Shown: positions 13,176-37,527 of the stretch, one piece after another
Numbering within the stretch: the stretch's first letter is position 1
Layout: the number at the start of each line of letters is the position of its first letter
Source: Rhodospirillaceae bacterium
Lineage (GTDB): Bacteria > Pseudomonadota > Alphaproteobacteria > UBA8366 > GCA-2717185
DNA: 45,868 bases
Assembly (NCBI GenBank): GCA_018660965.1
Contig: JABJJH010000037.1
Location: 1 to 45,868, forward strand
Reading direction: 5' to 3'
The notes under the pieces: model-generated
Seen by the model: only the letters and a program-made list of their open reading frames with translations
The model's database searches: none
Told to the model about the DNA's origin: nothing
Program-made: the position numbers and the translations under genes

Positions 13176-13443
13176 GAATTCGCGGCGCGCCTTCCAAGAG
13201 GCTCTAGATCAAGCCCGTGTTTTAAAACCTTGATTTTACCGGTGGGCACCTTAGCGCAGCTTTCCAAACCCGTAAATGTCTGGCATTTAACCATTGAATG
13301 GCGTTAGATTTCCATAACGAGGGTGCGGACATCGGCGCAAATTCATTCGACCACCGCTGCTTCGCATAAACGTTTGAACAGGGATAAGGTCGCGAACACC
13401 TGTCGGGGGGACACGGTTTTCGCACCGGCGAGGACAAGAACCC

Positions 13444-14673
13444 ATGCAGCAACGGAAGTCGCCGCGTGTGCTGATTTACAGCCACGATACGTTTGGTCTG
13501 GGCCATTTGCGGCGATGCAGCGCGATCGCGCACGCCCTGTGCGAAAGCAACGAGGACCTGTCGGTGCTGATCCTGTCAGGCTCGCCCATTATAGGCAGTT
13601 TCGATTTTCGATCCCGCGTCGATTTCGTCAGAATTCCCGGCGTCATTAAGTTGCACAACGGGGAATACACCTCGCTGACACTGCCCATGGCGGTGGACGA
13701 CACCATCGCCATGCGCGCATCGATCATTCAACACACCGCAGAATTTTTCGATCCGGACATATTCATCGTCGATAAAGAACCGTTGGGATTGCGAGGCGAA
13801 CTCGCCGCCACGCTCGACGTTTTGAAAAAACGCGGCGCCCACATCGTCCTTGGTCTCCGCGACGTGCTGGACGAACCACGCTTGCTCGCGCCGGAATGGA
13901 AACGAAAAAACGCCGTCCCCGCGCTGGAAACCTATTACGATGAAATTTGGGTTTATGGCCTGCCGCAAGTCTGCGAACCGCTGGCGGAGATCGACCTGCC
14001 CGACTCGCTTCGGCGTAAAATGATATACACCGGTTATCTAAGACGCTTCGAAGGATCGAAACCGGTCGGGCAGCCCGCCTTCACGAAAACCGACAAGCCC
14101 TACATCCTGGTGACGCCCGGCGGCGGCGGCGACGGCGAAACCCTGGTGGACTGGGTGTTGCGCGCCTATGAAACCGATCACGACCTGCCCTATGCGTCGA
14201 TGATCGTGCTGGGTCCGTTCATGCAATCCGAGCGCCGTTCCGAATTCATCACCCGCGCCGACGCGCTGGACAAGGTCGATGCGATCACCTTTGAAGCCCA
14301 CATGGAAAGCCTGGCCGCCCACGCCGTCGGAATTATCGCCATGGGCGGCTACAACACCTTCTGCGAAATCCTGTCCTTCGACAAAAAGGCCCTAATCGTG
14401 CCGCGCACCGCGCCCCGGTTGGAACAATACATTCGCACCAGCCGCGCGGAAGACCTTGGCCTCGTCAGCATGTTATGCGACGACGGCATTCGCGCGGCGG
14501 AAACCATGGCGACCGCGATTCGGCATCTGCCGCAGCAACAATCGCCGTCCGACATCGTCGTGCCCGGCCTTCTCGACGGGTTGGACAATGTCAATATCCT
14601 GACCCGGCGCATGCTGGAGCGTCGTCCCAAAACAACCCGGCCGGAAATTGCGTCGGCGCGCAAACAGGCTTAG
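13444..14673 (+). CDS. Glycosyltransferase, GT-B fold (MurG/GT28-C-like, COG4671-type)
   Basis: N-terminal RVLIYSHDTFGLGHLRRC and C-terminal AMGGYNTFCEILSFDKKALIVPR (GT28 C-terminal-like nucleotide-sugar pocket). Confidence 0.72.
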   Translation: MQQRKSPRVLIYSHDTFGLGHLRRCSAIAHALCESNEDLSVLILSGSPIIGSFDFRSRVDFVRIPGVIKLHNGEYTSLTLPMAVDDTIAMRASIIQHTAEFFDPDIFIVDKEPLGLRGELAATLDVLKKRGAHIVLGLRDVLDEPRLLAPEWKRKNAVPALETYYDEIWVYGLPQVCEPLAEIDLPDSLRRKMIYTGYLRRFEGSKPVGQPAFTKTDKPYILVTPGGGGDGETLVDWVLRAYETDHDLPYASMIVLGPFMQSERRSEFITRADALDKVDAITFEAHMESLAAHAVGIIAMGGYNTFCEILSFDKKALIVPRTAPRLEQYIRTSRAEDLGLVSMLCDDGIRAAETMATAIRHLPQQQSPSDIVVPGLLDGLDNVNILTRRMLERRPKTTRPEIASARKQA

Positions 14674-14723
14674 GAGCCATCGCCCGGAATGACCAAAAGC
14701 ATAATGAATAGACCCCAGGATTT

Positions 14724-15953
14724 ATGGCGATGGCCGTCGCATTCGTCCTAAAGGGATATCCGAGGCTGTCGGAAACCTTTATCGCCCAGGAAATTAGGGC
14801 CCTGGAACAGCGCGGCCTCGACATACGAATTGTATCCCTTCGCCACCCCACCGACACCGATGCGCACCCGGTGCACCGGGAAATCCAGGCGCCGATTCTT
14901 TATCTTCCCGAATACCTTCACCACGAACCCATGCGCGCGGCGCGCGCGATAATCCACGCCCGGACCTTGCCAGGTTTCGCCGCTGCATTCGCGACATGGC
15001 GAGCGGATTTGCGCCGCGATTTTACGCGAAACCGCATACGCCGGTTTGGCCAGGCCTGTGTGTTGGCGCATGAATTACCGCCAGGGGTCGACAGGCTGCA
15101 CGCCCATTTCCTCCATACCCCGGCGTCGGTCGCGCGTTACGCGGCCATCATGAAAGGCCTGCCTTGGAGCGGGTCGGCCCACGCCAAGGACATCTGGACA
15201 ACGCCCGCATGGGATATTCGGGAAAAACTGGAGTCTCTCGATTGGCTGGTCACCTGCACACAAGCGGGCGCAGACTATTTACAAAGCCTGGCGCCGACCC
15301 CATCGACCGTATCGCTGGTCCATCACGGTCTTGATTTCAGCCGCTTCACGACGCCCGACGCCCGCGAAAAGGTCAAGAATGCGCCCCTGATAATTCTGTC
15401 GGTCGGGCGCGCGGTGGCGAAAAAAGGCTATGACGATTGCCTGCAGGCCCTGGCGTCCTTACCGCCGCAATTGGATTGGCGATTCCGCCATATTGGCGGC
15501 GGCCCGCTATTGAGCGAATTGCGCGAGCGCGCGCGCGGTCTGGGACTGGACGACCGCATTGAATGGCTGGGCGCGCAGCCGCAAAATGTCGTGCTGTCCG
15601 AAATGCGGCGCGCCGACATCTTTGTGCTGCCCAGCAAACAAGCCCCCGACGGCGACCGTGACGGCCTGCCGAACGTCCTGATGGAGGCGCAAAGTCAGCG
15701 TGTAGCCGTGGTCAGCACCCGGCTGTCGGGTATTCCCGAACTTGTCCTCGACAGGGAAACCGGTCTTCTGGTGACGCCCGGCGACGCAAAGGCGTTATCC
15801 AGCGCGCTGCGAAACCTTTTAGAAGACTCGGCCTTGCGGTCCCGGTTGGCGCAGGCCGGTTTCGAAAGGGTCAGGTCCCGGTTTTCAATGGATGACGGCA
15901 TTGATTCGCTATCGAATAATTTTGGCCTGCGGGCGCGGCCCGCCGCCGCCTGA
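14724..15953 (+). CDS. Glycosyltransferase family 4 (WcaL-like)
   Basis: N-terminal GYPRLSETFIAQEI and C-terminal DGLPNVLMEAQSQRVAVVSTRLSGIPELV (E-x7-E region). Confidence 0.85.
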   Translation: MAMAVAFVLKGYPRLSETFIAQEIRALEQRGLDIRIVSLRHPTDTDAHPVHREIQAPILYLPEYLHHEPMRAARAIIHARTLPGFAAAFATWRADLRRDFTRNRIRRFGQACVLAHELPPGVDRLHAHFLHTPASVARYAAIMKGLPWSGSAHAKDIWTTPAWDIREKLESLDWLVTCTQAGADYLQSLAPTPSTVSLVHHGLDFSRFTTPDAREKVKNAPLIILSVGRAVAKKGYDDCLQALASLPPQLDWRFRHIGGGPLLSELRERARGLGLDDRIEWLGAQPQNVVLSEMRRADIFVLPSKQAPDGDRDGLPNVLMEAQSQRVAVVSTRLSGIPELVLDRETGLLVTPGDAKALSSALRNLLEDSALRSRLAQAGFERVRSRFSMDDGIDSLSNNFGLRARPAAA

Positions 15954-17095
15954 TGCATATCGCCTTTTACGCGCCGTTGAAGCCGCCGAGCCATCCGGTT
16001 CCTTCCGGTGATCGCCGCATGGCGCGATTATTGATTAAGGCGCTTCGCGGCGCCGGGCATCGGGTTTCCATCGCGTCCAGGCTGCGCAGTTACGACGGGC
16101 AAGGCGACGCCAAACGCCAGGACGTCATTCGCCGCCGCGCCGCGCGAATCGTCCAAACCTACATCGACAAAATTAAGGGCGAAAACCGCCCGGATATCTG
16201 GTTTACCTATCACCTTTATCACAAGGCGCCCGATCTTCTGGGTCCAACGGTCGCCGAGGCGCTGGCGCTTCCCTATGTCGTCGCCGAAGCGAGCTTCGCC
16301 CCCAAACAAGACCGTGGCCCCTGGCGACGCGGGCATGCGGAAGTCGGAGACGCCCTGCGTCGCACTGCGCGGATCATCATGCTCAACCCCGATGACGCCC
16401 CATGCGTTCGCGCTTTAATCGGCGACAATGACAACGGTCGCCGAATCACCGCCCTGGCGCCCTTTATCGACACCCGTCCGGCCCGGGCGGCGGCTTCAAA
16501 GCGGGCGACGCATCGGGTGGATTTCGCGCGCCGCCTCGGACTGAACCCGAACGTGCCCTGGCTCGCCGTCGTGGCGATGTTGCGGGGTGGCGACAAACGC
16601 GATTCCTATCGGGCCTTGGCCGGGATCATTCGCCGACTGCGCGAGACGCCGCTGCATCTTCTTATTGCAGGCGATGGACCGGCGCGCGCGGAGATCAAAG
16701 GGTTTTTCGGAGACGACCCCCGCATTCGCTGGCTTGGCGAGATAGCAGCGTCGGAAATTGACGCCTTGCACGCCGCCGCCGATCTCGTGGTGTGGCCCGC
16801 CATGCGGGAAGCCTACGGCATGGCGCTTTTGGAAGCACAGGCCGCTGGCGTTCCGGTGGTCGCCGGCGGCGCGCCCGGCGTCCGCCAAATTGTTGCGCAC
16901 GGTGAAACAGGATTGATTGTTCCCATGGACCCCGACTCTCTGGTGACCTGCATGACGGATGCGGTATCGAGTTTGTTGAGCGACGCCGAACGACTGCGCG
17001 CCATGGGCGACGCCGCACTGGAACGCGCACGGCGCTGTCACGATATTGAATCAGCGGCCCAACGATTGAACAAGATTTTGGAAGACGCGATATGA
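15953..17095 (+). CDS. Glycosyltransferase family 4
   Basis: PSGDRRMARLL N-terminal region and EAYGMALLEAQAAGVPVVAG...IVAHGETGLIV. The start overlaps the upstream stop by 1 nt. Confidence 0.85.
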   Translation: MHIAFYAPLKPPSHPVPSGDRRMARLLIKALRGAGHRVSIASRLRSYDGQGDAKRQDVIRRRAARIVQTYIDKIKGENRPDIWFTYHLYHKAPDLLGPTVAEALALPYVVAEASFAPKQDRGPWRRGHAEVGDALRRTARIIMLNPDDAPCVRALIGDNDNGRRITALAPFIDTRPARAAASKRATHRVDFARRLGLNPNVPWLAVVAMLRGGDKRDSYRALAGIIRRLRETPLHLLIAGDGPARAEIKGFFGDDPRIRWLGEIAASEIDALHAAADLVVWPAMREAYGMALLEAQAAGVPVVAGGAPGVRQIVAHGETGLIVPMDPDSLVTCMTDAVSSLLSDAERLRAMGDAALERARRCHDIESAAQRLNKILEDAI

Positions 17096-17703
17096 CTCTG
17101 CTGGCCGTGATCCGGCATGGACCCACCGAATGGAACGAAAAGGGCGTCGTTCAGGGCCACAGCGACATTCCGCTCAGCGCCTCTGGCCGTGTCAGCGTTT
17201 CCGCATGGACCCCGCCGCGCGATCTCGATATCTTTGATTGGGTCGCCAGCCCGTTAAAGCGGGCCCAGGAAACTGCGGTTATTCTGTCCGGGCGGCGCCC
17301 CCGCACCGATGGCCGGCTGACCGAAATGAACTGGGCGGTGTGGGAAGGAAAACGCCTGCCTGAATTGCGCGCGGAACTGGGCGATCTCATGAAGGCGTGG
17401 GAAGCGAAGGGGCTCGATTTTCGCGCGCCCGGCGGCGAAAGCCCACGCGATGTGCAAGACCGCTTGAAGCCTTTCCTCGCCGAATGCGCGGCCAAACGCC
17501 AGGATACCGTTGCCGTGTGTCATAAAGGCGTCCTTCGCGCCCTGTACGCGCTATCGGTATCCTGGGATATGACGGACAAGGCGCCAGAAAAGCTTCACGA
17601 CGAGTGTGTTCATTATTTCCGGCTCGATTCAAACGGCGCGCCCACGCCCCATCGTCTGAACCAGCCGATGACCGATTCTCCAACGGCGTATGGCGGCGGT
17701 TAA
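17092..17703 (+). CDS. Histidine phosphatase family protein (phosphoglycerate-mutase-like)
   Basis: AVIRHGPTEWN (catalytic RHG) and a later VCHKGVLRAL (second catalytic His region). ATGA overlap with the upstream gene. Confidence 0.85.
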   Translation: MTLLAVIRHGPTEWNEKGVVQGHSDIPLSASGRVSVSAWTPPRDLDIFDWVASPLKRAQETAVILSGRRPRTDGRLTEMNWAVWEGKRLPELRAELGDLMKAWEAKGLDFRAPGGESPRDVQDRLKPFLAECAAKRQDTVAVCHKGVLRALYALSVSWDMTDKAPEKLHDECVHYFRLDSNGAPTPHRLNQPMTDSPTAYGGG

Positions 17704-17707
17704 CGGA

Positions 17708-18847
17708 ATGGCGCGGGTCCTTTTCCACGTTCAACATTTGCTGGGCATTGGTCACCAATCACGCGCCGCCGCGATCACGCGCGCCATGACCGCCGCTGGT
17801 CTCGACGTTATTTACGCCACGGGCGGATTTCCCGACTCCACACTCGACCTTGGCGGCGCAAGCGTCGTGCAATTACCGCCCGCCCGCGCCCGCGACGCCA
17901 CTTTCAAAACGGTATTGGACGAAACCGGGCGCCCCATCGACGACGCCTGGGAAACCCGGCGGCGCGAGGCGTTGCTCGCCGCGTATCACACGGCCAAACC
18001 CGACGCCGTCCTCGTCGAAGGGTATCCCTTCGCGCGACGGCGATTTCGCTTCGAGCTATTACCGTTGTTACAAGCCACCAAGGACGACGGCGCACCCGTC
18101 GCAGTGTCGGTGCGGGACATTGTTGCGCAGAAAAGCAGCCCCGCCCGCGCGCAGGAGACCGTTGATATTGTCCAACGTTTTTGTACATCCGTGCTTGTGC
18201 ATGGCGATGCGGCGTTCATTTCGTTCAACGCGACATTTCCCGCCGCAGCCGACATCGCCGATAAAATCCGCTACACCGGCTATGTTTCGCCTCCGTTTAC
18301 ACCCCCCCAGAAAGCTCCAACCCGCGACGGCGTGGTTGTTTCGGTCGGTGGCGGCGCCGTCGGCGGGCCGTTAATACGATGCGCCCTGGCGGCGCGACCG
18401 TTGACCCGCCTCCGCGACGCGCCATGGCGATTTATGACCGGCCCGAACCTTCCTGAACCGGACCGTCGCGCGTTGTCGGCGTCTGACGGCGTTTCAATCG
18501 AACAATTCAGTTCCGATTTTCGCGGCCTGTTGTCGCGCGCCGCCGTGTCGATAAGCCAGGCGGGCTATAATACCGTCATGGATGTACTGATCACCCGCAC
18601 TCCCGCCGTGTTGGTCCCGTTCAGCCAGGAAGGGGAAATCGAACAAACCATTCGAGCCGAATTATTGACCCATCAATCGGGATTCAAATTTGTTCCGGAA
18701 CCGGAATTAACTGCCAAGCGCCTGGCGCTCGCCGTGGACGAGGTCGTTTTCGATACCGCGCCGACAACCTCAATCCACACCATGAACATGGACGGCGCGG
18801 CGGAAACCGCAAAGATTATGCTTCATCTTGCCTCTTTAAAGCGCTGA
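17708..18847 (+). CDS. Glycosyltransferase, GT-B fold (paralog-like of 13444-14673)
   Basis: RVLFHVQHLLGIGHQSR and SQAGYNTVMDVLITRTPAVLVP mirror the motifs of the first glycosyltransferase. The start could also be ATG 17690. Confidence 0.7.
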   Translation: MARVLFHVQHLLGIGHQSRAAAITRAMTAAGLDVIYATGGFPDSTLDLGGASVVQLPPARARDATFKTVLDETGRPIDDAWETRRREALLAAYHTAKPDAVLVEGYPFARRRFRFELLPLLQATKDDGAPVAVSVRDIVAQKSSPARAQETVDIVQRFCTSVLVHGDAAFISFNATFPAAADIADKIRYTGYVSPPFTPPQKAPTRDGVVVSVGGGAVGGPLIRCALAARPLTRLRDAPWRFMTGPNLPEPDRRALSASDGVSIEQFSSDFRGLLSRAAVSISQAGYNTVMDVLITRTPAVLVPFSQEGEIEQTIRAELLTHQSGFKFVPEPELTAKRLALAVDEVVFDTAPTTSIHTMNMDGAAETAKIMLHLASLKR

Positions 18848-18870
18848 TCGAATTCGCTATACAGAATCAC

Positions 18871-19632
18871 ATGCCTCAATTGCGCTACGCCGACGAGCAA
18901 ACAGGTTGGGCCGCGTTCTTCGCGGAACTCGACGCATGGCGTGACGCCGGACGTGTCGCGACGTTCTGGTGGCGCGACGACGATGCGACGGACGAGACCC
19001 CGGCGTTGACGCGCTTGCTGGACATTGCAGGCGACATACCGGTTTCGTTGGCGTCGATCCCCCGCGATGCGACGACCGCGTTGGCGAACGCCATCGCCGA
19101 CCAGCCCAACGTATCGGTGCTTCAGCATGGATATGCGCACACCAATCATGCGCCGCCTCTGGAAAAAAAGGCCGAGTTCGGACCCCACAGGCCCCTTGAT
19201 GCGATGCAACGGGACCTGACGACCGGATTCATACGACTGCGCGACCTTTTCGGTCCCCGCTTCCAGGCGATATTCGTTCCGCCTTGGAATCGAATGGCGG
19301 ATAGCGTCGCGCCCCTGTTACCACAGGTTGGGTTGCAATCGTTTTCAACCTATGGACTGACGCAGAAGTCCCTGGCCGCGCCGCAAGTCAATACACACGC
19401 CGACATCATCAATTGGCGCGGTGGCCGTACCTTTCTGGGGGAAAGCGCCGTCCTCGACCTCATGACAAACCACCTTTCGGCGCGCCGTCGAGGCGACGCG
19501 GCGGAAAATGCGCCAACCGGGCTGTTGACTCATCATTTGGTCCACGATGACGCCTGTTGGCGGTTCACCGGGGATCTGGTGCAGGCCGTCACGGACCACC
19601 CTGCAGCCTCATGGAAAGCGCCGACGGCATGA
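18871..19632 (+). CDS. Polysaccharide-deacetylase-like family protein
   Basis: FWWRDDDAT...LQHGYAHTNHAP...FVPPWNR, a motif pattern I associate with proteins annotated as the polysaccharide deacetylase family in alphaproteobacteria. Family assignment is from memory only. Confidence 0.55.
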   Translation: MPQLRYADEQTGWAAFFAELDAWRDAGRVATFWWRDDDATDETPALTRLLDIAGDIPVSLASIPRDATTALANAIADQPNVSVLQHGYAHTNHAPPLEKKAEFGPHRPLDAMQRDLTTGFIRLRDLFGPRFQAIFVPPWNRMADSVAPLLPQVGLQSFSTYGLTQKSLAAPQVNTHADIINWRGGRTFLGESAVLDLMTNHLSARRRGDAAENAPTGLLTHHLVHDDACWRFTGDLVQAVTDHPAASWKAPTA

Positions 19633-29241: not shown

Positions 29242-29928
29242 TCAGGGGACCAAGCGATAGCCGCCGGGCTCCGTCACCAGAATTTTTGAATTAGACGGGT
29301 CCCGTTCGATTTTTTGCCGTAACCGGTAAACATGCGTTTCAAGCGTATGCGTCGTGACGCCGGCGTTATACCCCCAGACCTCGTCCAACAAAGTGTCCCG
29401 ATCAACGACCTTGTCTCCCGTCCGGTACAAATATTTCAGGATAGAGGTTTCCTTTTCCGTCAACCGAACCTTCTGTTCCGTTTCATCGTCGACAAGTATT
29501 TTCCCGCTTGGTCGAAACGTGTAGGGCCCAATCGTGAAAACCGCATCCTCGCTTTGTTCGTGTTGGCGAAGCTGAGCCCGCAGGCGCGCCAGCAACACGC
29601 CAAGCCGAAACGGCTTGGTCACGTAATCATTCGCACCGGCGTCCAGGCCCAAAATCGCATCCGCATCCGTGTCGGCGCCGGTCAACATGATTATCGGCGA
29701 TTTAACCCCGTTGCGGCGCATCAAACGGCAGGCTTCGCGACCGTCCATGTCCGGCAATCCGACATCCAGAAGAATTGCGTCGAAATAATCATTCTTTACA
29801 ATTTCCAGCCCGTCGGCCGCCGTGCCCGCAACGGTGGTTTCGAATTCCTCGTGCAGCCGCAACTGTTCCGCCAACGAACCGCGAAGCGCGTCATCATCGT
29901 CCACCAACAATACTTTTTTTCCCGTCAT
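29242..29928 (-). CDS. OmpR-family response regulator transcription factor (resembles the alphaproteobacterial CenR group)
   Basis: Receiver KVLLVDDDD...AILLDVGLPDMDG...TKPF and winged helix VWGYNAGVTTHTLETHVYRLRQKIE. ATG 29928 has GAGGA 4 nt upstream. The CenR likeness is from memory. Confidence 0.9.
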   Translation of the reverse strand: MTGKKVLLVDDDDALRGSLAEQLRLHEEFETTVAGTAADGLEIVKNDYFDAILLDVGLPDMDGREACRLMRRNGVKSPIIMLTGADTDADAILGLDAGANDYVTKPFRLGVLLARLRAQLRQHEQSEDAVFTIGPYTFRPSGKILVDDETEQKVRLTEKETSILKYLYRTGDKVVDRDTLLDEVWGYNAGVTTHTLETHVYRLRQKIERDPSNSKILVTEPGGYRLVP

Positions 29929-30017
29929 TCGATCCTCGTTGCCCATTCTTGGCGCGCACGACGTCATTATACTGCAATTGGAAAAATTTCGCCATTTTCT
30001 ACATAACTTTCACGGCC

Positions 30018-30812
30018 TTATGATGTGTTGTCTGCGCCGGGTACGGCGAGAAGATCCATGTGCCCCAACCGCAACCGCAAGACGCCGCGCTCTATCTCAT
30101 GGCGCCGACGCGCCAGCCAATCCGACGCATCCAGGCCATATGGCAGAACGGCGGCGGCGATCATCCGCGTTAAAGCGTCCAATAAACCCGCATCGGCGGC
30201 GCCAAGACGCCAATCGGCGCGACGGCTGGACACCATGAACCCGTGCGTCGTTAAAATCCGGATCATCGCCATTGCGGCCCCGCCGCCCAGCGCAGGACCG
30301 AATCCCTTGTCGCGCCGTTGATCGCGGGCGAATAGCGCCATGATGTCATTGTCTCGGTCATGCGCCGGGCTCCACCGCCACCGGCCATCCACGCTCAACG
30401 CCAACAGCAAGGGAACGCCGCATACGGACCGCGCGAAGTCGTCAAACCAGTCCTCGGACACAAGGTCGAAAAACGCCGACGCAGTGACGCCGTCCACCCC
30501 AGCCAATAACTCCGGCGAAATTCCGGGGGTTAAATCGGCGATAACGACGTCGGCGCACCCGTTCAAGCCTCGCGCCCGCATCAACAAGTCCGGATCGCCA
30601 TCAACAAGAGTCCAGTCCGGCGCCAGGCCCGGCGCCGACCAGCCCGTTTCGGTTTCGAAATAAAATGCGTTGGCGCCGGCGCCGGACGCCACATCCAAAA
30701 CGCGCGGGTGCGCCGGGAGTTGCTTGATAAAGCGGTCCGCCAAAGTCTGCGACCGCGCAGCGCTATCGGCCTGTACGCGCAAGCTCAACCAGTCACCAGC
30801 AAAGGATTCCAT
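30018..30812 (-). CDS. Class I SAM-dependent methyltransferase
   Basis: RVLDVASGAGANAFYF (motif I) and VVIADL (post-I acidic region). Confidence 0.7.
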   Translation of the reverse strand: MESFAGDWLSLRVQADSAARSQTLADRFIKQLPAHPRVLDVASGAGANAFYFETETGWSAPGLAPDWTLVDGDPDLLMRARGLNGCADVVIADLTPGISPELLAGVDGVTASAFFDLVSEDWFDDFARSVCGVPLLLALSVDGRWRWSPAHDRDNDIMALFARDQRRDKGFGPALGGGAAMAMIRILTTHGFMVSSRRADWRLGAADAGLLDALTRMIAAAVLPYGLDASDWLARRRHEIERGVLRLRLGHMDLLAVPGADNTS

Positions 30813-30821
30813 GACGGATCG

Positions 30822-31904
30822 CTACACAGTAAGCGGCGTCGCGCGAATTGCCGCCTCAAGCACGGTGTCAAACTTGGCGGCGGCGGCGCCCCAGGACGGC
30901 AATTGACGACCAGCCCGCGCCGCACCCGCAGCCAGCCCACATCGCAACGGCGCATCCGTCATGACCCGGTCCAGCGCATCGGTTAACGCCGCCGCGTCGC
31001 CAACAGGAACAAGCAATCCGCAATCCGCCTGCACGGTGTCGGCGACCGCCCCACCGCCACTGCCGACAATGGGAAGGCTCTGCGCCATCGCTTCGGCGAA
31101 GGCCATACCATAGCCTTCGAATTCCGATGCCAGCACGAACACATCGGCGCGGCGGTATTCGGCTTGTAGCTGCGCATCGTCAAGTTCGCCCGTCAGATGG
31201 ATACGGTCCACTAGGTCTTCACGGTCGATCAGTTCGCGAACTTCAGCGGTCGTCGCGGAGTCCGCGCGCAACGATCCCACGATGGTCAATCGCCAATCGC
31301 GCGTGCGGCACGCGGCCAAGGCGGAAATCAATATTCGATACCCCTTGCGCGGGATCACAGACCCGACGGACAACAATCGCAACGGACCGGTTTCGTCGCA
31401 GTCTGGAATTATCGCGGTGGAAACAGGTTTCGTGCCCGGTGTCACCACGGAAATATTTTTGCGCGAAACGCCCGCCCGCAGCACTGAAGTCGCCGTGGTC
31501 GGGCTGGTGACAATGACGCTCCGCGCCGCGCCAAGGCATCGGATCTCGATTTCGCCAAGCACGCATCTGTCAGCGTCATCAAGACTGGTTTCATCCGCCA
31601 GAAGATGATGGATGAGGGCGATTATGCAAAGACGCGGCGCGTTACGCTCAACCAGCGACGCGAACGCAGGCAAGGCCAATCCATCCACAATCACGAGCGC
31701 GCCGTCGAGCGCCGACTCGATCATGTTTGTCGCCGCCGTTACGGCCGTGGCGTCAGGGCGCGGGAACCGCCCTTCCAGCTCATGCAAGCGCACATCGCGC
31801 CCGCGCTTCCGCAACCCGTCGATAATGCGTCGGTCATAGCCGTACCCACCGGTCTTGCGTTGGATCGTTCCGGGAACGACAAAATGAATCGACCGCTTAT
31901 CCAT
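30822..31904 (-). CDS. Glycosyltransferase family 4
   Basis: GGYGYDRRIIDGL N-terminal region and EGYGMAFAEAMAQSLPIVGSGGGAVADTV (E-x7-E). Confidence 0.85.
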   Translation of the reverse strand: MDKRSIHFVVPGTIQRKTGGYGYDRRIIDGLRKRGRDVRLHELEGRFPRPDATAVTAATNMIESALDGALVIVDGLALPAFASLVERNAPRLCIIALIHHLLADETSLDDADRCVLGEIEIRCLGAARSVIVTSPTTATSVLRAGVSRKNISVVTPGTKPVSTAIIPDCDETGPLRLLSVGSVIPRKGYRILISALAACRTRDWRLTIVGSLRADSATTAEVRELIDREDLVDRIHLTGELDDAQLQAEYRRADVFVLASEFEGYGMAFAEAMAQSLPIVGSGGGAVADTVQADCGLLVPVGDAAALTDALDRVMTDAPLRCGLAAGAARAGRQLPSWGAAAAKFDTVLEAAIRATPLTV

Positions 31905-32310
31905 CTTCGCGGATGGCCGCTTCGTAGGCGGCCCAGGCGTCTGGTTTTTCGCGCAAGGTCACGCCAACCCGCGCCACCTGATCCACCGCATCGCCACCCA
32001 ATCGATCTTCGCGAATTCCAGCGACAAAACGGTCGAAGATATCTTTCGCCAGGACTTCCGTGGTTGTGTTGCGTCCCGTAAATTCCGGCAAGTCGTCAAG
32101 ATTTCGATACGATAGCGGCGCCAGCACGTCGCCCAATAATGCCGCCGCACGGCCAATATCGGCGACAATGCCATTTTCATCCAGGGTGCGGCGGGACATC
32201 GTTATTTCCACCACATAGGTGGCGCCGTGCAACCGTTGCGCCGGACCGAAGATATCCCCTGCAAGCGAATGTGCTATCATCACGCTATTGGATACGGTCA
32301 CGCTGAACAT
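31897..32310 (-). CDS. 6-pyruvoyl-tetrahydropterin / 6-carboxytetrahydropterin synthase (PTPS/QueD) fold protein, non-canonical active site
   Basis: 137 aa. IAHSL...RLHGATYVVE...YRNLDD...NTTTEVLAKDIF follows the QueD/PTPS layout, but the HGH motif reads HGA and the usual Cys is absent. Confidence 0.78.
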   Translation of the reverse strand: MFSVTVSNSVMIAHSLAGDIFGPAQRLHGATYVVEITMSRRTLDENGIVADIGRAAALLGDVLAPLSYRNLDDLPEFTGRNTTTEVLAKDIFDRFVAGIREDRLGGDAVDQVARVGVTLREKPDAWAAYEAAIREDG

Positions 32311-32334
32311 AAAGTCGGCCTCCGGATTGATCTC

Positions 32335-33315
32335 TTAGGAATATGTCACAACGTGACAAAGGGTGTCACCCGGGTCGCTCACCAGGCTAGCCATTGTTTC
32401 CGGTAAATCCTCGAACGCCGAGCGGCCTGTAATCAAGCAATCGAACATAGGGTCCCGCAATAACCCCATTGCGAATGTCAGCCGATCGCGCCGGGTTCGC
32501 CGCGACCGGCGGCTGGCGGCGACGGCGCCAACCTGACTGGCGCGAATGGACAACCGCTTGGCGTGAAACGCCTCGCCGAGCGGCGCCGACACCGCGCGGT
32601 CGCCATACCAGCTCATCTCGATAATAGGTGCCTCGAATCCGGCCAGCCCCAGCGCCGTCGTCAAGCCCGCGCTCACGCCACTGGCGTGGAAGACAATATC
32701 AGCCGATCCTGTCGCGTCCTTCGGGGCGGCGAAGCCAACATTTAGAGCGGCCGCCACCGCCGCACGGTTCGGGTTGACGTCCACCAACTGAACCCGCGCG
32801 CCGGGCAAGCGCCCACACAACGCCGCCACCATGCAACCGACAACGCCGCCGCCGACCACCGCAATCCGGTCGCCGATCCGGGGGCCCGAATCCCACATCG
32901 CGTTGACGGCGGTTTCCATGTTGGCCGCCAAAACGGCCCGGTCGTCGGAAACATCGTCGGGAATGGTGATCACCGATGCGGCGGGAGCGACATACCGGTC
33001 CTGATGCGGATATAAACAAAACACCCGCGCGCCACTGTCCTGGACAACGCCAGCGGACGCATACCCGTATTTAACCGGCGCGGGAAAGTCGCCGTCCTGG
33101 AACGGACATCGCATCGCGGAATATTGGCTTTCGGGTACGTGGCCCATAAACACCAACGCTTCGGTGCCCCGGCTTATGGCGCTGCGAACCGTTTCGACCA
33201 CGACATCATCGGGTCCTGGCGCATGAACGGGCGCGGCGCGAATTTCGCCACGGCCCGGCGCCGCCACCCAAAACGACCGTTCGACCGCTTTGTTCAGCAT
33301 CGAGGCTTCACCCAT
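32335..33315 (-). CDS. Medium-chain (zinc-type) dehydrogenase/reductase family protein
   Basis: GroES-like N-terminal region and Rossmann motif RIAVVGGGVVGCMVAAL. The start overlaps the upstream gene by 8 nt. Confidence 0.78.
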   Translation of the reverse strand: MGEASMLNKAVERSFWVAAPGRGEIRAAPVHAPGPDDVVVETVRSAISRGTEALVFMGHVPESQYSAMRCPFQDGDFPAPVKYGYASAGVVQDSGARVFCLYPHQDRYVAPAASVITIPDDVSDDRAVLAANMETAVNAMWDSGPRIGDRIAVVGGGVVGCMVAALCGRLPGARVQLVDVNPNRAAVAAALNVGFAAPKDATGSADIVFHASGVSAGLTTALGLAGFEAPIIEMSWYGDRAVSAPLGEAFHAKRLSIRASQVGAVAASRRSRRTRRDRLTFAMGLLRDPMFDCLITGRSAFEDLPETMASLVSDPGDTLCHVVTYS

Positions 33316-34234
33316 CGTTAAAGCCGCAATCGAACAAAATATCGTCTCCGAAATCGAACCGGCGTACAGTCGGGCGCCGTCCCTCGGCCAGGGTTTCCAC
33401 CGGCGGCAACGTTATGGCCGGGCGACCCGAGCCCAGAATCATCGGCGCGACGGTGATATGCAGCCGGTCGAGACATCCGGCCTGCAGAAATCGCGACACC
33501 GTCACGCCACCGCCTTCGACAAAAATTCGCGACAATCCACGCGCGGCCAAAACCTCCAAAATCGCGTGGGGACACAGGCCCGTTTCCACTGAATTATCAA
33601 CAAGTCCTGCGGCAAGTCCCGTGGCGGCGCGGCGCGCCCCCAGAACCATGGACAAGCCGTGCCGATCACGATCGCCGGCCAACGCTTCATCGCAAATCAG
33701 CAATGTCTCGGCGGCGCCGTCCTGAAACACATCGAAATCGACCCCAAGGCGGCGGCGCGGGTCAAGCACCACGCGAACCGGATTGTCGCCATCGCACAAC
33801 CGCACGGTCAAGCGCGGATTATCGGAGGCGACCGTACCCGCCCCGACGACCACGGCGTCGAACAACGCCCGCATCCGGTGATTGTGCAGTATGTCCACCG
33901 GGCCTGTGACGAAGTGCGAAGCGCCGGTCACGGTGGCGATCCGACCGTCAAGACTCTGTCCCAAATGCGCCGCGACATACGCGTCCTGACCGGCGCATAG
34001 CGGTCCGTATAACGCCATCAACGATGGCCATGGCGGCGGTGTTGTTTCCAGATTAATGGGTTGGCGATTCCATCGGTAATCAAGCAAAGTGCGCCAGTTT
34101 TCGTCAGGTATCTCGCAATAAGCCAGATTTTCCTCGACTAAATTTGCGGATACATCAATGGTGCGGGTCAAACCGTTGGTCAATTCATGGGACCGTTTAT
34201 TATTTTCCATTAGCCAATTCCGCTGTTCGACCAT
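33308..34234 (-). CDS. RibD C-terminal (pyrimidine reductase / DHFR-like) domain protein with an about 85-aa N-terminal extension
   Basis: GQSLDGRIATVTGASHFVTGP...HRMRALFDAVVVGAGTVASDNPRLTVR...NPVRVVLD...IFVEGGGVTVSRFL. I see no cytidine-deaminase HAE/PCxxC motif. Confidence 0.8.
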   Translation of the reverse strand: MVEQRNWLMENNKRSHELTNGLTRTIDVSANLVEENLAYCEIPDENWRTLLDYRWNRQPINLETTPPPWPSLMALYGPLCAGQDAYVAAHLGQSLDGRIATVTGASHFVTGPVDILHNHRMRALFDAVVVGAGTVASDNPRLTVRLCDGDNPVRVVLDPRRRLGVDFDVFQDGAAETLLICDEALAGDRDRHGLSMVLGARRAATGLAAGLVDNSVETGLCPHAILEVLAARGLSRIFVEGGGVTVSRFLQAGCLDRLHITVAPMILGSGRPAITLPPVETLAEGRRPTVRRFDFGDDILFDCGFNDG

Positions 34235-34245
34235 ATATCAATCAG

Positions 34246-34998
34246 ATGACGGATTCCACCGCGTTAAGCCGCCCTTTGGACCATGCTGGATGCACATTGC
34301 TGGCGACTGGCGGGCTTGTGGCGGCGCTGATGTGGTGGACCAATCCATCCCTCGCCGCCAGTTTCACCGCTGCGGGCGCGTATTTCGCCGCTGCGATGAT
34401 GGTGCTGGCGATTGGCGCACGCGGCGGCGCCCTGCGCCGCTTTGGCCACGCGAACCGGATCACATGGCTGCGGACCGCCCTCGCCGCGATGTTGGCCGGG
34501 TTCGCGATTGACGCCTCGACCGCCAATGCCGCCATCTGGTGGGGCGTCATCAGCGCCGCCTGCATCGCGCTGGCCCTGGACGGGCTGGATGGGTTTGTCG
34601 CGCGACGGCGCAATGAGTGCACCGCTTTCGGCGCGCGGTTTGACATGGAAACCGACGCCGCCCTGATCCTGGTTCTTACGGTATTGGTCTGGCAGTCCGG
34701 CAAAACCGGGTCTTGGGTTTTGATTATTGGTGCGATGCGCTATGTTTTCATTGCGGTGGGGCATGTTTATCCGATATTGACCTCCCCATTACCGCCAAGC
34801 ATACGCCGCAAGTTGGTTTGCGTCGGTCAAGTCGTTGGTCTCGTCCTGTGCCTTTTGCCGATCATTCCCACGGAAATTGCTTCCTTCATGGCCAGCCTGG
34901 CGCTGGCGGCCTTGACCTTGTCCTTCGCCAAGGACGTAATGACGTTAATACGACCAGAACCAAACGAACACCTTACCGGGCGAACACTGTATAAATAG
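34246..34998 (+). CDS. CDP-alcohol phosphatidyltransferase family membrane protein
   Basis: DGLDGFVARRRNECTAFGARFDMETDAA matches D-G-x2-A-R-x8-G-x3-D-x3-D (nt 34579-34656). The protein has multiple hydrophobic helices. Confidence 0.8.
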   Translation: MTDSTALSRPLDHAGCTLLATGGLVAALMWWTNPSLAASFTAAGAYFAAAMMVLAIGARGGALRRFGHANRITWLRTALAAMLAGFAIDASTANAAIWWGVISAACIALALDGLDGFVARRRNECTAFGARFDMETDAALILVLTVLVWQSGKTGSWVLIIGAMRYVFIAVGHVYPILTSPLPPSIRRKLVCVGQVVGLVLCLLPIIPTEIASFMASLALAALTLSFAKDVMTLIRPEPNEHLTGRTLYK

Positions 34999-35001
34999 CC
35001 A

Positions 35002-36192
35002 ATGACACACGGAACACAGCCACCAACGATGACGCGCCAGACTCAGACTAAAACACAGGCCCAGGCTCAAGCGCAGGACCAGAGCCGGGCCTTAAATCGG
35101 AGTGTCACCGCCGTCGCACGGGCGATAGGCGATTTACGCCGTGGCGCGCCCGTTGTTCTGCGCGCCGCCCAATCAGCCATCATCGTCGCGGCCGCCGAAA
35201 ACGGCCCCGGCGCCTTGACCGCCGTGACAGATCATGACGCCGCCTGCGTCATCACGGCGCCACGCGCCCAGGCGCTGGGATTGGATCAAGGCGACGCGAC
35301 GGCGATCGTGATTGAGTCGCCAGACCCGTTAAGCGTGCTGGACATCGAAACCATCATCGGCGACGCCGCAGCGCAGAACCCCACGCTCTTGGGATCGACG
35401 CTGTCGGGTTCAACGGCGAACCCGTTGCAGATGGCGGCGGTTGAACTGGTGAAATTGGCCCGATTATTGCCAGCCGCGCTGGTGAGCGATTGCCCCCCTG
35501 CGACAAACGCCACGCCAGAAGTTACTCCGGAAGCCTATGCCGCGCAGGAAAACCTGCTGATCGTCGACGCAGACGACATCGTACGTTATCGCGCCGCCAG
35601 CGAAGAACTGCTCGACGCGGTGGTTGAAGTCGATGTGCCGTTGGCCGGCGCTGAAAACACCCGGATGGTCGCATTCCGCCCCGCCGATGGCGGCAAAACC
35701 CATCTTGCGATTATCGTCGGCGCCCCCGACCCCGCCGAACCGGTGCTGACCCGATTGCATTCCGAATGTTTCACGGGGGACCTTCTGGGAAGCCTTCGTT
35801 GCGATTGCGGCGATCAGTTGCGCGGCGCGATTGACGCCATTGCCGCCGCCGGAGGTGGTATTCTTCTCTACCTGGCGCAGGAAGGGCGCGGCATCGGACT
35901 GGTCAACAAGCTCCGCGCTTACCAATTGCAGGACGCGGGGTTCGACACCATCGACGCCAATGAACGTTTAGGCTTTGACGCCGACGAGCGCGTCTATACG
36001 CCAGCCGCCAACATGCTGAAGCAACTGGGATACCGCTCGGTGCGCCTGATGACCAACAACCCGGTCAAGGTCGCAGCGTTGAGCGCGCACGGGGTCATGG
36101 TGTCGGACCGTGTACCGCACGCCTTTCCCGCCAATGGACACAACGAACACTACCTTCAGACCAAGGCCGCTCGCGGCGGCCATATCCTGTAA
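35002..36192 (+). CDS. GTP cyclohydrolase II (RibA-like) with a degenerate RibB-like N-terminal domain
   Basis: LHSECFTGDLLGSLRCDCGDQL (Zn Cys triad) and LLYLAQEGRGIGLVNKLRAYQLQDAGFDTIDAN. The N-terminal half resembles DHBP synthase but lacks an acidic NEGD-type catalytic motif. Confidence 0.9.
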   Translation: MTHGTQPPTMTRQTQTKTQAQAQAQDQSRALNRSVTAVARAIGDLRRGAPVVLRAAQSAIIVAAAENGPGALTAVTDHDAACVITAPRAQALGLDQGDATAIVIESPDPLSVLDIETIIGDAAAQNPTLLGSTLSGSTANPLQMAAVELVKLARLLPAALVSDCPPATNATPEVTPEAYAAQENLLIVDADDIVRYRAASEELLDAVVEVDVPLAGAENTRMVAFRPADGGKTHLAIIVGAPDPAEPVLTRLHSECFTGDLLGSLRCDCGDQLRGAIDAIAAAGGGILLYLAQEGRGIGLVNKLRAYQLQDAGFDTIDANERLGFDADERVYTPAANMLKQLGYRSVRLMTNNPVKVAALSAHGVMVSDRVPHAFPANGHNEHYLQTKAARGGHIL

Positions 36193-36390
36193 CCCCACGC
36201 CCTTACGGTCCTGCTCACTAATTTGACGGCGCAACGGCCCAACCTACGGCTGATCCTGCCGTTCGGGGGACAAGCTTGCCGCATGACCGGGGCAAAAGAT
36301 TCCGCCGCGCGCCTTACCATCCGCCAAAACCCGTGAAAATTCACATTCCCGCGTGGCGCCGGGTTTGCAAGTGATATGGCGGAGACAAAT

Positions 36391-37527
36391 ATGCAAGAAA
36401 TGACATCACAGGGCGTCGCCCCGCCGCCAATGGCGCCGGTCGCGAAGGCGTTCGGGGCGAAAGCGTTTAGCGCGAAGGCGATTGACGCGAAAACAACCGG
36501 GGTAAAAGCGACCGATGCGCCACCCAAGGTGACGCGTGAACCGCTTTCCGACCATGAACTTTTCCATCTGGAAATCCTCGCTGAAGAGGATGCGTCCATT
36601 GACCTTCCCACCAACCCCAACAGCGCGGGCGCGCAATCCGCTTTTTTCGGCGAGGATGGCCTGACATTCGGGGATGTACTCGACATCATTAACCCGCTGC
36701 AACATATCCCCGTCGTTTCAACCCTGTATCGTGAATTGACAGGGGACGAGATTTCACCGGGCGCGCGCATGGCGGGCGGGGCGCTGTTCGGCGGCCCCAT
36801 CGGGCTCGCTGCAGCGACCGTGAACAGCATCGTCGAAATGTCCACGGGTTCGGACATTGGTAAGGCGGTCGTGGCCGCCATTAACGGCGACGACGCAGCG
36901 CCAGTGACCGTCGCAACGCCCAATCCCACCCCCACAAGCGACGTTTCGCCGGCAATTATCGCAGCGATAACGCAACCTGCCGCCGCGCAAACAATCGCCC
37001 CCCGAATTGCCAGCGGAGAGGCGCCGAGGCCGCCCACGGCCAACAATCCCCAGATGGCGAGCGAAGCGACACCGGGGTCATTGATGAATTTATACAAATC
37101 GACAACGCCGGCGCGGGCCATGACTCCGACCGAAGCCTTATTGCAAGCCAGGGCCGCGGTTCCCCTTGCCGGGTCGGTCAAGGGTTTGGGATATGCATCG
37201 CGGTCCCGGTTCCAACCCGCAGTAACCCCTACTCCCGCACCCACGACGCCGACCACGGCGCCAAAGATTGGCGCGCGTCTGTCCAAACAGTTAACCTTGC
37301 TCGCCGCGCAATCCCAATCGGGGCCAAGCATCCCTCGATCTGACAAAGCCGCGCTCGCAAGGGAGGCGCCGACGAAACCTGTCGGCCAAACGGTTCCGAA
37401 CCCGTCAGCGGGCGCGCACGCGGCCACAACCTCCGAACCTCTTCCAACAAGCCAAATTCCCACCGCCATGCGTGACGCGTTGGACCGATACGAACAGATG
37501 AAACGCCAGCGACTTTCGCCCGGTTAA
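36391..37527 (+). CDS. Hypothetical Ala/Pro/Thr-rich protein with a central conserved-looking core
   Basis: GC3-rich codon pattern in this frame. GGAG lies 6 nt before ATG 36391 (ATG 36376 is also possible). The core reads FGDVLDIINPLQHIPVVSTLYRELTGDEISPGARMAGGALFGGP. No family recognised. Confidence 0.55.
   Translation: MQEMTSQGVAPPPMAPVAKAFGAKAFSAKAIDAKTTGVKATDAPPKVTREPLSDHELFHLEILAEEDASIDLPTNPNSAGAQSAFFGEDGLTFGDVLDIINPLQHIPVVSTLYRELTGDEISPGARMAGGALFGGPIGLAAATVNSIVEMSTGSDIGKAVVAAINGDDAAPVTVATPNPTPTSDVSPAIIAAITQPAAAQTIAPRIASGEAPRPPTANNPQMASEATPGSLMNLYKSTTPARAMTPTEALLQARAAVPLAGSVKGLGYASRSRFQPAVTPTPAPTTPTTAPKIGARLSKQLTLLAAQSQSGPSIPRSDKAALAREAPTKPVGQTVPNPSAGAHAATTSEPLPTSQIPTAMRDALDRYEQMKRQRLSPG

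Follow-up and report, generated by a model that had tools for sequence, protein, structure and literature searches.

A conserved PTPS-IV gene cluster in a Rhodospirillaceae bacterium and a tentative proposal for a GTP-derived, membrane-linked product

Gene layout of the locus

Here we describe a gene cluster of the PTPS-IV/SCO6650 type at positions 30018-36192 of a 45,868-nucleotide stretch of Rhodospirillaceae DNA, hereafter the window. A reading of the window made from the sequence alone (the sequence-only reading) had reported seven genes there and suggested that they make a decorated pyrimidine- or pteridine-like compound with a possible link to the membrane. Our open reading frame (ORF) check reproduced all seven genes together with their spacing, five on the minus strand and two on the plus strand in a divergent arrangement:

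30018-30812, minus strand: class I S-adenosylmethionine (SAM)-dependent methyltransferase, 264 residues, last gene of the minus-strand unit
30822-31904, minus strand: GT4 (GT-B) glycosyltransferase, 360 residues (Glycos_transf_1, Glyco_trans_1_4)
31897-32310, minus strand: PTPS-IV type T-fold protein, 137 residues (PF01242; orthologue family of SCO6650)
32335-33315, minus strand: zinc-less MDR-fold NAD(P) dehydrogenase, 326 residues, polyol-dehydrogenase-like by the fold of its model
33308-34234, minus strand: RibD_C-type pyrimidine reductase without a deaminase domain (PF01872), start uncertain
34246-34998, plus strand: membrane CDP-alcohol phosphatidyltransferase, 250 residues (PF01066), divergent from the minus-strand unit
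35002-36192, plus strand: two-domain GTP cyclohydrolase II, with a degenerate RibB-fold N-terminal domain and an intact cyclohydrolase II domain (PF00925)

The genes are tightly packed, with 8-nt overlaps at 33308-33315 (reductase and dehydrogenase) and 31897-31904 (T-fold protein and glycosyltransferase), gaps of 9 and 24 nt elsewhere in the minus-strand unit, and a gap of 3 nt in the plus-strand unit. Profile searches against Pfam and NCBIfam, complemented by a structure model for the dehydrogenase, supported the family assignments of the sequence-only reading, directly for six proteins and through orthologues only for the methyltransferase. Identical genes are found in public contigs of a Rhodospirillaceae metagenome-assembled genome and in a 261-kb JGI contig.

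Three candidate starts for the reductase (34234, 34210 and 34018) give lengths of 308 residues (the longest ORF), 300 residues (the JGI call) and 236 residues (the NCBI call). Homology to relatives begins at residue 56-72, and residues 1 to ~55 have no homologue in any related locus; a conserved extra domain in the first 88 residues was considered and rejected, as no locus holds a homologue of it. The longest ORF leaves just 11 bp between the divergent units. On the plus strand, the ATG of the CDP-alcohol transferase at 34246 sits within a longer TTG-initiated ORF (34144-34998), and public gene calls start the cyclohydrolase at 35029. A promoter and terminator scan gave background level only, and an Rfam search returned neither an FMN riboswitch nor any other match in the window or in seven related loci.

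Active sites of the encoded enzymes

The GTP cyclohydrolase II (GCH II) matches PF00925 at 6.8e-58, scores above the TIGR00505 cut-off (207.8 versus 205.85) and matches the E. coli RibA structure 2bz0 at 50-52% identity. Its zinc cysteines C256, C267 and C269 are kept and invariant, as is Tyr307 at the position of E. coli Tyr105, and with the zinc site and this tyrosine intact, the normal GCH II product would be expected. Mycobacterium tuberculosis RibA2 and RibBX match the protein along its whole length. Structure prediction followed by a fold search matched the N-terminal domain to RibB structures (E ~1e-6); a search with its sequence alone was not significant, the top match being RibB at E = 0.19. 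Relative to an E. coli RibB sequence, the domain is without the acidic catalytic loop and other RibB motifs, which agrees with the degenerate RibB domain suspected in the sequence-only reading.

SCO6655 of Streptomyces coelicolor, studied by Spoonamore and Bandarian, reportedly stops at a formylated intermediate (FAPy) through a Tyr-to-Met change. In loci related to the window, a creatininase-family gene accompanies each of the nine cyclohydrolases in which Met, His or Leu replaces the tyrosine, compared with 9 of the 33 that carry Tyr. A creatininase-family enzyme deformylates the formylated GCH II intermediate in the riboflavin synthesis of Sinorhizobium meliloti (PMC9478397), and the combination of a tyrosine-substituted cyclohydrolase with a creatininase fits a FAPy-forming enzyme paired with a deformylase. 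The cyclohydrolase of the window, which has the tyrosine and no adjacent creatininase gene, is not of the SCO6655 type and forms no ArfA-ArfB pair.

The reductase matches the RibD_C profile PF01872 at 1e-36 and has no deaminase domain. Its best PDB matches are the reductases 6p8c and 2azn, which act on 2,5-diamino-6-ribosylamino-pyrimidinone 5'-phosphate (DAROPP), and its best NCBIfam matches are of archaeal type too. Bacterial RibD carries a lysine that selects the deaminated substrate (5-amino-6-ribosylamino-pyrimidinedione 5'-phosphate, AROPP), whereas the yeast and archaeal enzymes, with Thr and Asn respectively, reduce the 2-amino compound (PMC3631187). In the window, His90 occupies the AROPP-specific lysine position of EcRibD and BsRibG, and across 56 cluster-linked reductases the specificity residue is His in 22, Gln in 10, Ser in 24 and Lys in none. 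In their sequence features, the cluster reductases thus resemble archaeal-type reductases that act before deamination; the non-lysine specificity residue, together with the lack of a deaminase in the cluster, suggests that the 2-amino-4-oxo ring should be retained. The likeness to the early riboflavin steps of archaea and fungi (ArfA/ArfB/ArfC, Rib7) thus covers a stand-alone reductase without a deaminase, the matches to DAROPP reductases and a specificity residue other than lysine, and also extends to creatininase-family genes in loci related to the window. The cluster differs from these systems in having no later riboflavin genes, in the constant setting of its reductase amid genes for the MDR dehydrogenase, PTPS-IV, GT4 and CDP-alcohol transferase, and in the specificity residue itself, which is His, Gln or Ser rather than Asn or Thr.

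For the T-fold protein, which matches the PTPS profile PF01242 at 3.1e-22, the only close solved relative is the 'uncharacterized protein SCO6650' of S. coelicolor (PDB 3D7J, E = 1.7e-37). An FGPAQ signature is invariant across the window protein and eight relatives. This signature marks the PTPS-IV subfamily of COG0720, whose gene neighbourhoods hold PF00925 and PF01872 (PMC5445326), and the window protein belongs to this subfamily by its FGPAQ signature, its homology to SCO6650, and its GCH II and RibD_C neighbours. With the canonical PTPS and QueD enzymes (PTPS-I, -II and -III) it shares the T-fold, the PF01242 match and the Thr-Thr-Glu (TTE) substrate anchor, which holds the 2-amino-4-oxo ring of pterins. 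It differs from them in reading PAQRLHGA where the catalytic enzymes have one of the motifs CxxxHGH, CxxxxxHGH or ExxHGH (PMC5041015), and in the loss of one zinc histidine and of the Asp-His pair. Compared with rat PTPS, the HGH zinc motif has become HGA with the loss of one zinc ligand, there is no catalytic cysteine, and other residues stand in place of the Asp-His pair, with Tyr68 at the position of the catalytic histidine. On the strength of these residues, we conclude that the protein is not a catalytic PTPS or QueD, and the loss of the motif and of the zinc histidine implies that its public annotation as '6-carboxytetrahydropterin synthase' is likely wrong. The ring that the TTE anchor recognises is the same 2-amino-4-oxo ring that the reductase would leave in place, so that the two features match.

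The dehydrogenase gave weak sequence matches only, to BchC and to threonine, xylitol and sorbitol dehydrogenases. Its AlphaFold2 model (predicted local distance difference test score of 91.8) shows an MDR fold of the polyol-dehydrogenase branch, and the top Foldseek matches are idonate, sorbitol and threonine dehydrogenases (E ~1e-19 for all three), xylitol dehydrogenase and TarJ; as all polyol-type matches score alike, the fold search did not narrow the substrate. The Rossmann GxGxxG motif is kept, with G155, G157 and G160 invariant. At what we take to be the zinc-ligand motifs of the MDR family, the protein reads SRGTE and KYGY, invariant in 77 orthologues, without the catalytic Cys/His/Glu ligands, and it contains several invariant Arg and Lys residues.

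The glycosyltransferase matches Glycos_transf_1 and Glyco_trans_1_4 at ~1e-27, and its closest solved relatives are sucrose-phosphate synthase (6kih), MshA, PimA and PimB, whose acceptors are fructose-6-phosphate, inositol-3-phosphate and phosphatidylinositol. Direct Pfam and PDB searches with the window methyltransferase returned no match. Its family is present in 58 related loci, 30 of 33 aligned orthologues match Methyltransf_25, the SAM-motif residues G44, G46 and D71 are invariant, and the family profile matches SAM methyltransferases in the PDB.

The CDP-alcohol transferase matches PF01066 at 2.1e-16, and its D-x2-D-G-x2-A-R-x8-G-x3-D-x3-D motif (D112, D115, G116, A119, R120, G129, D133 and D137) is invariant in 50 orthologues. 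It falls below the NCBIfam equivalog cut-offs for pgsA (37.5 versus 109), PIPSynth (19.9 versus 170) and pssA (22.3 versus 107) and is, by its profile scores, not a PgsA equivalog. No cytidylyltransferase for a CDP-activated small alcohol was found among the conserved neighbours, which favours CDP-diacylglycerol as the donor. The pairing of a CDP-alcohol transferase with a GT4 enzyme is shared with the entry into phosphatidylinositol, phosphatidylinositol mannosides and mycothiol (PIP synthase or PgsA, then PimA; MshA), where the acceptors are polyol phosphates. The cluster differs in its scores, which lie far under the equivalog cut-offs, and in having no inositol-phosphate synthase, and its own polyol phosphate would be GTP-derived.

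Conservation across bacteria and relation to known systems

A scan with one genome per species detected the PTPS-IV gene in at least 585 species-level genomes. We fetched 80 related loci from at least five phyla (judged by record title, and all approximate: 38 from Actinomycetota, 12 from Alphaproteobacteria, 7 from Betaproteobacteria, 9 from Gammaproteobacteria, 6 from Acidobacteriota, 2 from Gemmatimonadota and 6 from loosely named Proteobacteria), and counted co-occurrence in the 46 with full 10-kb flanks, drawn from Alpha-, Beta- and Gammaproteobacteria, Actinomycetota, Acidobacteriota and Gemmatimonadota. PTPS-IV is accompanied by the MDR dehydrogenase and the GT4 enzyme in every one of these loci (46/46 each), by the CDP-alcohol transferase in 44 and by the methyltransferase in 37. 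GCH II is present in 33 and RibD_C in 29, with at least one of the two in 41; at a looser threshold, which catches a divergent actinobacterial form, RibD_C rises to 56 of 81. An MprF-type flippase domain (LPG_synthase_TM, PF03706, 9e-41) occurs in 30 of the 46 loci and a creatininase-family gene in 14.

The same set is kept in at least three gene orders, one alphaproteobacterial, one shared by Beta- and Gammaproteobacteria, Acidobacteriota and Gemmatimonadota, and one actinobacterial. Recurrence in 80 loci of at least five phyla and in several orders places the adjacency of these genes far beyond chance. The sequence-only reading had named chance adjacency in a single genome as one way in which its view of the block could fail; instead, the block recurs widely outside this genome.

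Among the actinobacterial relatives, SCO6650 in the S. coelicolor SCO6650-SCO6655 region shares the FGPAQ and HGA features of the window T-fold protein, and Streptomyces loci whose PTPS protein is 87-89% identical to SCO6650 share the CDP-alcohol transferase, MDR, GT4 and methyltransferase genes together with GCH II. The Streptomyces versions differ in having a short, single-domain GCH II with Met at the tyrosine position, a creatininase gene, a flippase-domain gene and no detectable RibD_C, whereas the window has a two-domain, Tyr-type GCH II and RibD_C, and neither a creatininase nor a flippase gene. Right after GCH II in Streptomyces clusters lies a DAO-family FAD oxidoreductase (15451-16626 in locus L073; also in L067 and L076), which may be an alternative redox step in that lineage; as general members of the gene set, this oxidoreductase and an SDR protein were rejected, being present in four and two loci only.

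Other genes accompany the block in parts of its range. Roughly 8-11 actinobacterial loci (L042, L065, L074 and others) share an extracytoplasmic function (ECF) sigma factor paired with a zf-HC2 anti-sigma factor, located ~2-5 kb upstream of the CDP-alcohol transferase gene, which hints at envelope-stress control. A second methyltransferase, of the FkbM type, is found in nine loci from Beta- and Gammaproteobacteria, Acidobacteriota and Gemmatimonadota (15998-16792 in L031; also L008, L009, L013, L014, L035, L048, L058 and L078). Phage-type head genes lie just past the methyltransferase end of the block in L088. Within the window itself, a second sugar-related group at 10509-19632 comprises an ABC exporter (888 residues, minus strand), a 409-residue ORF without a Pfam match, two GT4 glycosyltransferases and one GT28 C-domain protein; we found no link between this group and the cluster.

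The cluster does not correspond to a bacterial riboflavin operon (ribD, ribE, ribBA, ribH), since it has neither the deaminase domain nor the AROPP-specific lysine. No lumazine synthase, riboflavin synthase or functional RibB was found in the cluster or in the window ORFs scanned. The exclusion of riboflavin, queuosine, folate and toxoflavin operons by the sequence-only reading stands, for riboflavin on the lack of a deaminase, of lumazine and riboflavin synthases and of an FMN riboswitch. No Fo synthase (FbiC/CofGH) or CofC/D/E family was seen among the conserved neighbour families that were identified, a survey in which not every small family was scanned; the single link to F420 is a statement in a review on unpublished work.

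A full-text literature search, which did not cover the most relevant subscription papers, found no characterised pathway with this gene set; nor, within the same accessible literature, did it find any mention of the constant membrane partners (CDP-alcohol transferase and flippase domain), of reductases lacking the lysine or, for Rhodospirillales, of GCH II as a backbone gene (see below). The neighbourhood itself has been published under the PTPS-IV/SCO6650 heading. The cluster is thus an orphan that had already been noticed, to which the window adds one member in an alphaproteobacterial layout, and the novelty implied in the sequence-only reading does not extend to the neighbourhood.

A proposed pathway and its alternatives

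As a tentative reading, which we favour while recognising that it could well be wrong, the product would carry a 2-aminopyrimidine or pterin made from GTP, decorated with a sugar and a methyl group, as a head group on a membrane phospholipid. We infer the order of the steps and the substrates of the tailoring enzymes from enzyme families, active-site residues and co-occurrence. GCH II, an enzyme family of established activity whose gene is probably shared here with riboflavin synthesis, would open GTP to give 2,5-diamino-6-ribosylamino-pyrimidinone 5'-phosphate, and the stand-alone RibD_C enzyme, judging by its specificity residue and the missing deaminase, would reduce this product without deamination and so keep the 2-amino-4-oxo ring. 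More speculatively, the zinc-less polyol-type dehydrogenase and PTPS-IV might then rework the ribityl or ribosyl side chain, with the T-fold pocket gripping the 2-amino-4-oxo pyrimidine or pterin. One speculative option for this step is a reduction with a subsequent 2'-oxidation, which together would amount to what GTP cyclohydrolase I does in its Amadori step and would allow closure to a neopterin-like pterin without that enzyme. The GT4 enzyme would add a sugar and the methyltransferase a methyl group, after which the CDP-alcohol transferase could attach the head group, a polyol phosphate, to a phospholipid by a phosphodiester bond, paralleling PgsA or PIP synthase followed by PimA. In many other taxa, the MprF-type flippase domain may finally move the product to the outer leaflet.

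The suggestion of a decorated pyrimidine or pteridine with a membrane link, made in the sequence-only reading, gains from the TTE anchor, the absence of the lysine from all 56 reductases, the intact CDP-alcohol transferase motif and the flippase domain in 30 of 46 loci, while the product and its lipid link are still what we infer. A wider formulation strikes us as somewhat unlikely: that the product belongs to a new class of membrane lipids or lipid-anchored cofactors, with a GTP-derived 2-amino-4-oxo pyrimidine or pterin as head group that is formed without GTP cyclohydrolase I. In this view, the Amadori and ring-closure half of that enzyme would be taken over jointly by GCH II, the archaeal-type reductase, the polyol-type dehydrogenase and the T-fold protein, which looks non-catalytic; the head group would then receive a sugar, a methyl group and a phosphatidyl group and, in many phyla, be moved to the outer leaflet.

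Several observations weigh against the proposed pathway, and the position of GCH II is among them. Rhodospirillales conserve the order response regulator, two-domain GCH II, a gene of 325-406 residues without known function, YkuD, YggS ... LeuS. Three loci (L083-L085) keep this order without the block, and their GCH II is 53-55% identical to that of the window; in four others (L001, L057, L086 and L087), as in the window, the six other genes are inserted between the regulator and GCH II; and two (L002 and L003) have the six genes with no GCH II at the site. The cyclohydrolase is thus a lineage backbone gene in Rhodospirillales, present with or without the block, and that of the window is probably shared with, or is itself, the riboflavin GCH II of the organism, a possibility that the sequence-only reading had named among those that could overturn it. 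Since GCH II occurs without the block and the block without GCH II, we count six dedicated genes in the window, and the seven-gene unit of the sequence-only reading does not hold. The link to GTP chemistry does hold, because the RibD_C gene leads the operon and overlaps the gene that follows it, and because the clusters of other phyla bring their own GCH II. Further points on the same side are that the RibD_C family includes dihydropterin and dihydrofolate reductases, with PDB 4xrb (Rv2671) among the matches of the window enzyme; that PTPS-IV, without known catalytic residues, might only bind or carry a ligand; that GCH II and RibD_C are both missing from the 10-kb surroundings in 5 of the 46 loci; that RibD_C escapes detection in Streptomyces loci; and that a 2016 review ties PTPS-IV to F420 synthesis, citing unpublished work (PMC5041015).

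Two further features of the surroundings of GCH II can be recorded here. The OmpR-type response regulator (29242-29967, minus strand), 74-85% identical in related Alphaproteobacteria, adjoins the block in genomes that have it; in those that do not, the regulator lies immediately beside GCH II in divergent orientation. It belongs to the lineage backbone and is not a regulator specific to the block. An extension of the block leftward to this regulator and to genes of the MBL-fold and Methyltransf_24 families was rejected, as these belong to the lineage synteny and are also present without the block. On the other side, a 437-residue ORF (36156-37469, minus strand) lies antisense to a conserved 383-residue gene (36376-37527, plus strand), which is the syntenic neighbour of GCH II, and is most likely a high-GC artefact.

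The early chemistry would be the same if the product were a soluble pterin or aminopyrimidine glycoside, a cofactor or pigment comparable to cyanopterin, limipterin, solfapterin or vicine, in which case the CDP-alcohol transferase would add a small phospho-alcohol (such as glycerol or inositol) or use another substrate, and there would be no lipid anchor. As proposed for the cluster, these pteridine glycosides and vicine combine a GTP-derived heterocycle with a glycosyltransferase, and the GT4 enzyme, the methyltransferase and the pterin-binding T-fold protein are all in keeping with such a compound. GTP cyclohydrolase I and a catalytic PTPS open the pathways to the known pterin glycosides, none of which is known to involve a CDP-alcohol transferase or a flippase domain; the cluster has no GTP cyclohydrolase I, and its PTPS is non-catalytic. 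Vicine, a pyrimidine glucoside, is reported to start from a GCH II product (bioRxiv 10.1101/2020.02.26.966523). Two observations that also count against our proposal point the same way: the window has no flippase, and in L088 (5343-8844) a 594-residue GT2 protein, an EamA transporter and an FkbM methyltransferase replace the CDP-alcohol transferase between RibD_C and GCH II, so that not every cluster would include a phosphodiester or lipid step; proteins of the EamA family export small molecules. Even so, nearly all loci retain the CDP-alcohol transferase, which is an integral membrane enzyme, the missing cytidylyltransferase favours a CDP-diacylglycerol donor, and a lipid-flippase-type domain is found in most of the 46 loci, which leads us to regard a soluble glycoside as unlikely.

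The two remaining explanations would separate the pyrimidine genes from the envelope genes. Two independent modules might often lie side by side, one making an envelope glycolipid (CDP-alcohol transferase, GT4, methyltransferase, MDR dehydrogenase, PTPS-IV acting on a non-pterin substrate, and flippase) and the other handling GTP or pyrimidines. That the core of MDR, PTPS, GT4 and CDP-alcohol transferase is more constant than GCH II or RibD_C, that GCH II and the block are separable in Alphaproteobacteria, and that PTPS-IV is without PTPS catalytic residues are all consistent with such a division, which we nevertheless consider distinctly unlikely: GCH II or RibD_C stays within 10 kb in 41 of 46 loci across phyla despite rearranged orders, RibD_C is the first operon gene of the window and overlaps the MDR gene, and PTPS-IV keeps the anchor for the very ring that the reductases, having lost the residue selecting the deaminated form, would supply. 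Alternatively, the cluster could be an auxiliary, archaeal-style early route to riboflavin or F420 precursors, with cyclohydrolase, deformylase and reductase acting before a deaminase, PTPS-IV supplying a missing step, and the glycosyl and lipid genes being unrelated neighbours. The archaeal-like reductases, the creatininase genes beside tyrosine-substituted cyclohydrolases with their S. meliloti formamidase precedent (PMC9478397), and the persistence of GCH II without the block in this lineage would all suit this explanation. It appears to us the most improbable one, since no deaminase, lumazine synthase, riboflavin synthase or F420 genes were seen among the domain-identified neighbour families (not every small family being scanned), it is the MDR, GT4 and CDP-alcohol transferase genes, and not the rib-like ones, that invariably accompany PTPS-IV, there is no FMN riboswitch and the RibB domain is degenerate. 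A 2026 review also describes the function of the S. coelicolor cluster cyclohydrolase as 'unrelated to flavin biosynthesis' (PMC13151069).

Carriers of the gene set include Streptomyces, Micromonospora, Salinispora, Chromohalobacter and many soil Acidobacteriota and Proteobacteria. The crystal structure of one of its proteins has been solved, and for another an unusual activity was reported in 2006. If the preferred reading of a GTP-derived pterin or aminopyrimidine on a phospholipid is true, it would correct a widespread mis-annotation of these proteins as QueD, 'zinc-binding alcohol dehydrogenase' and RibA, it would reveal a second route into pterin-like chemistry, and the product would represent a new kind of envelope component or membrane-bound cofactor.

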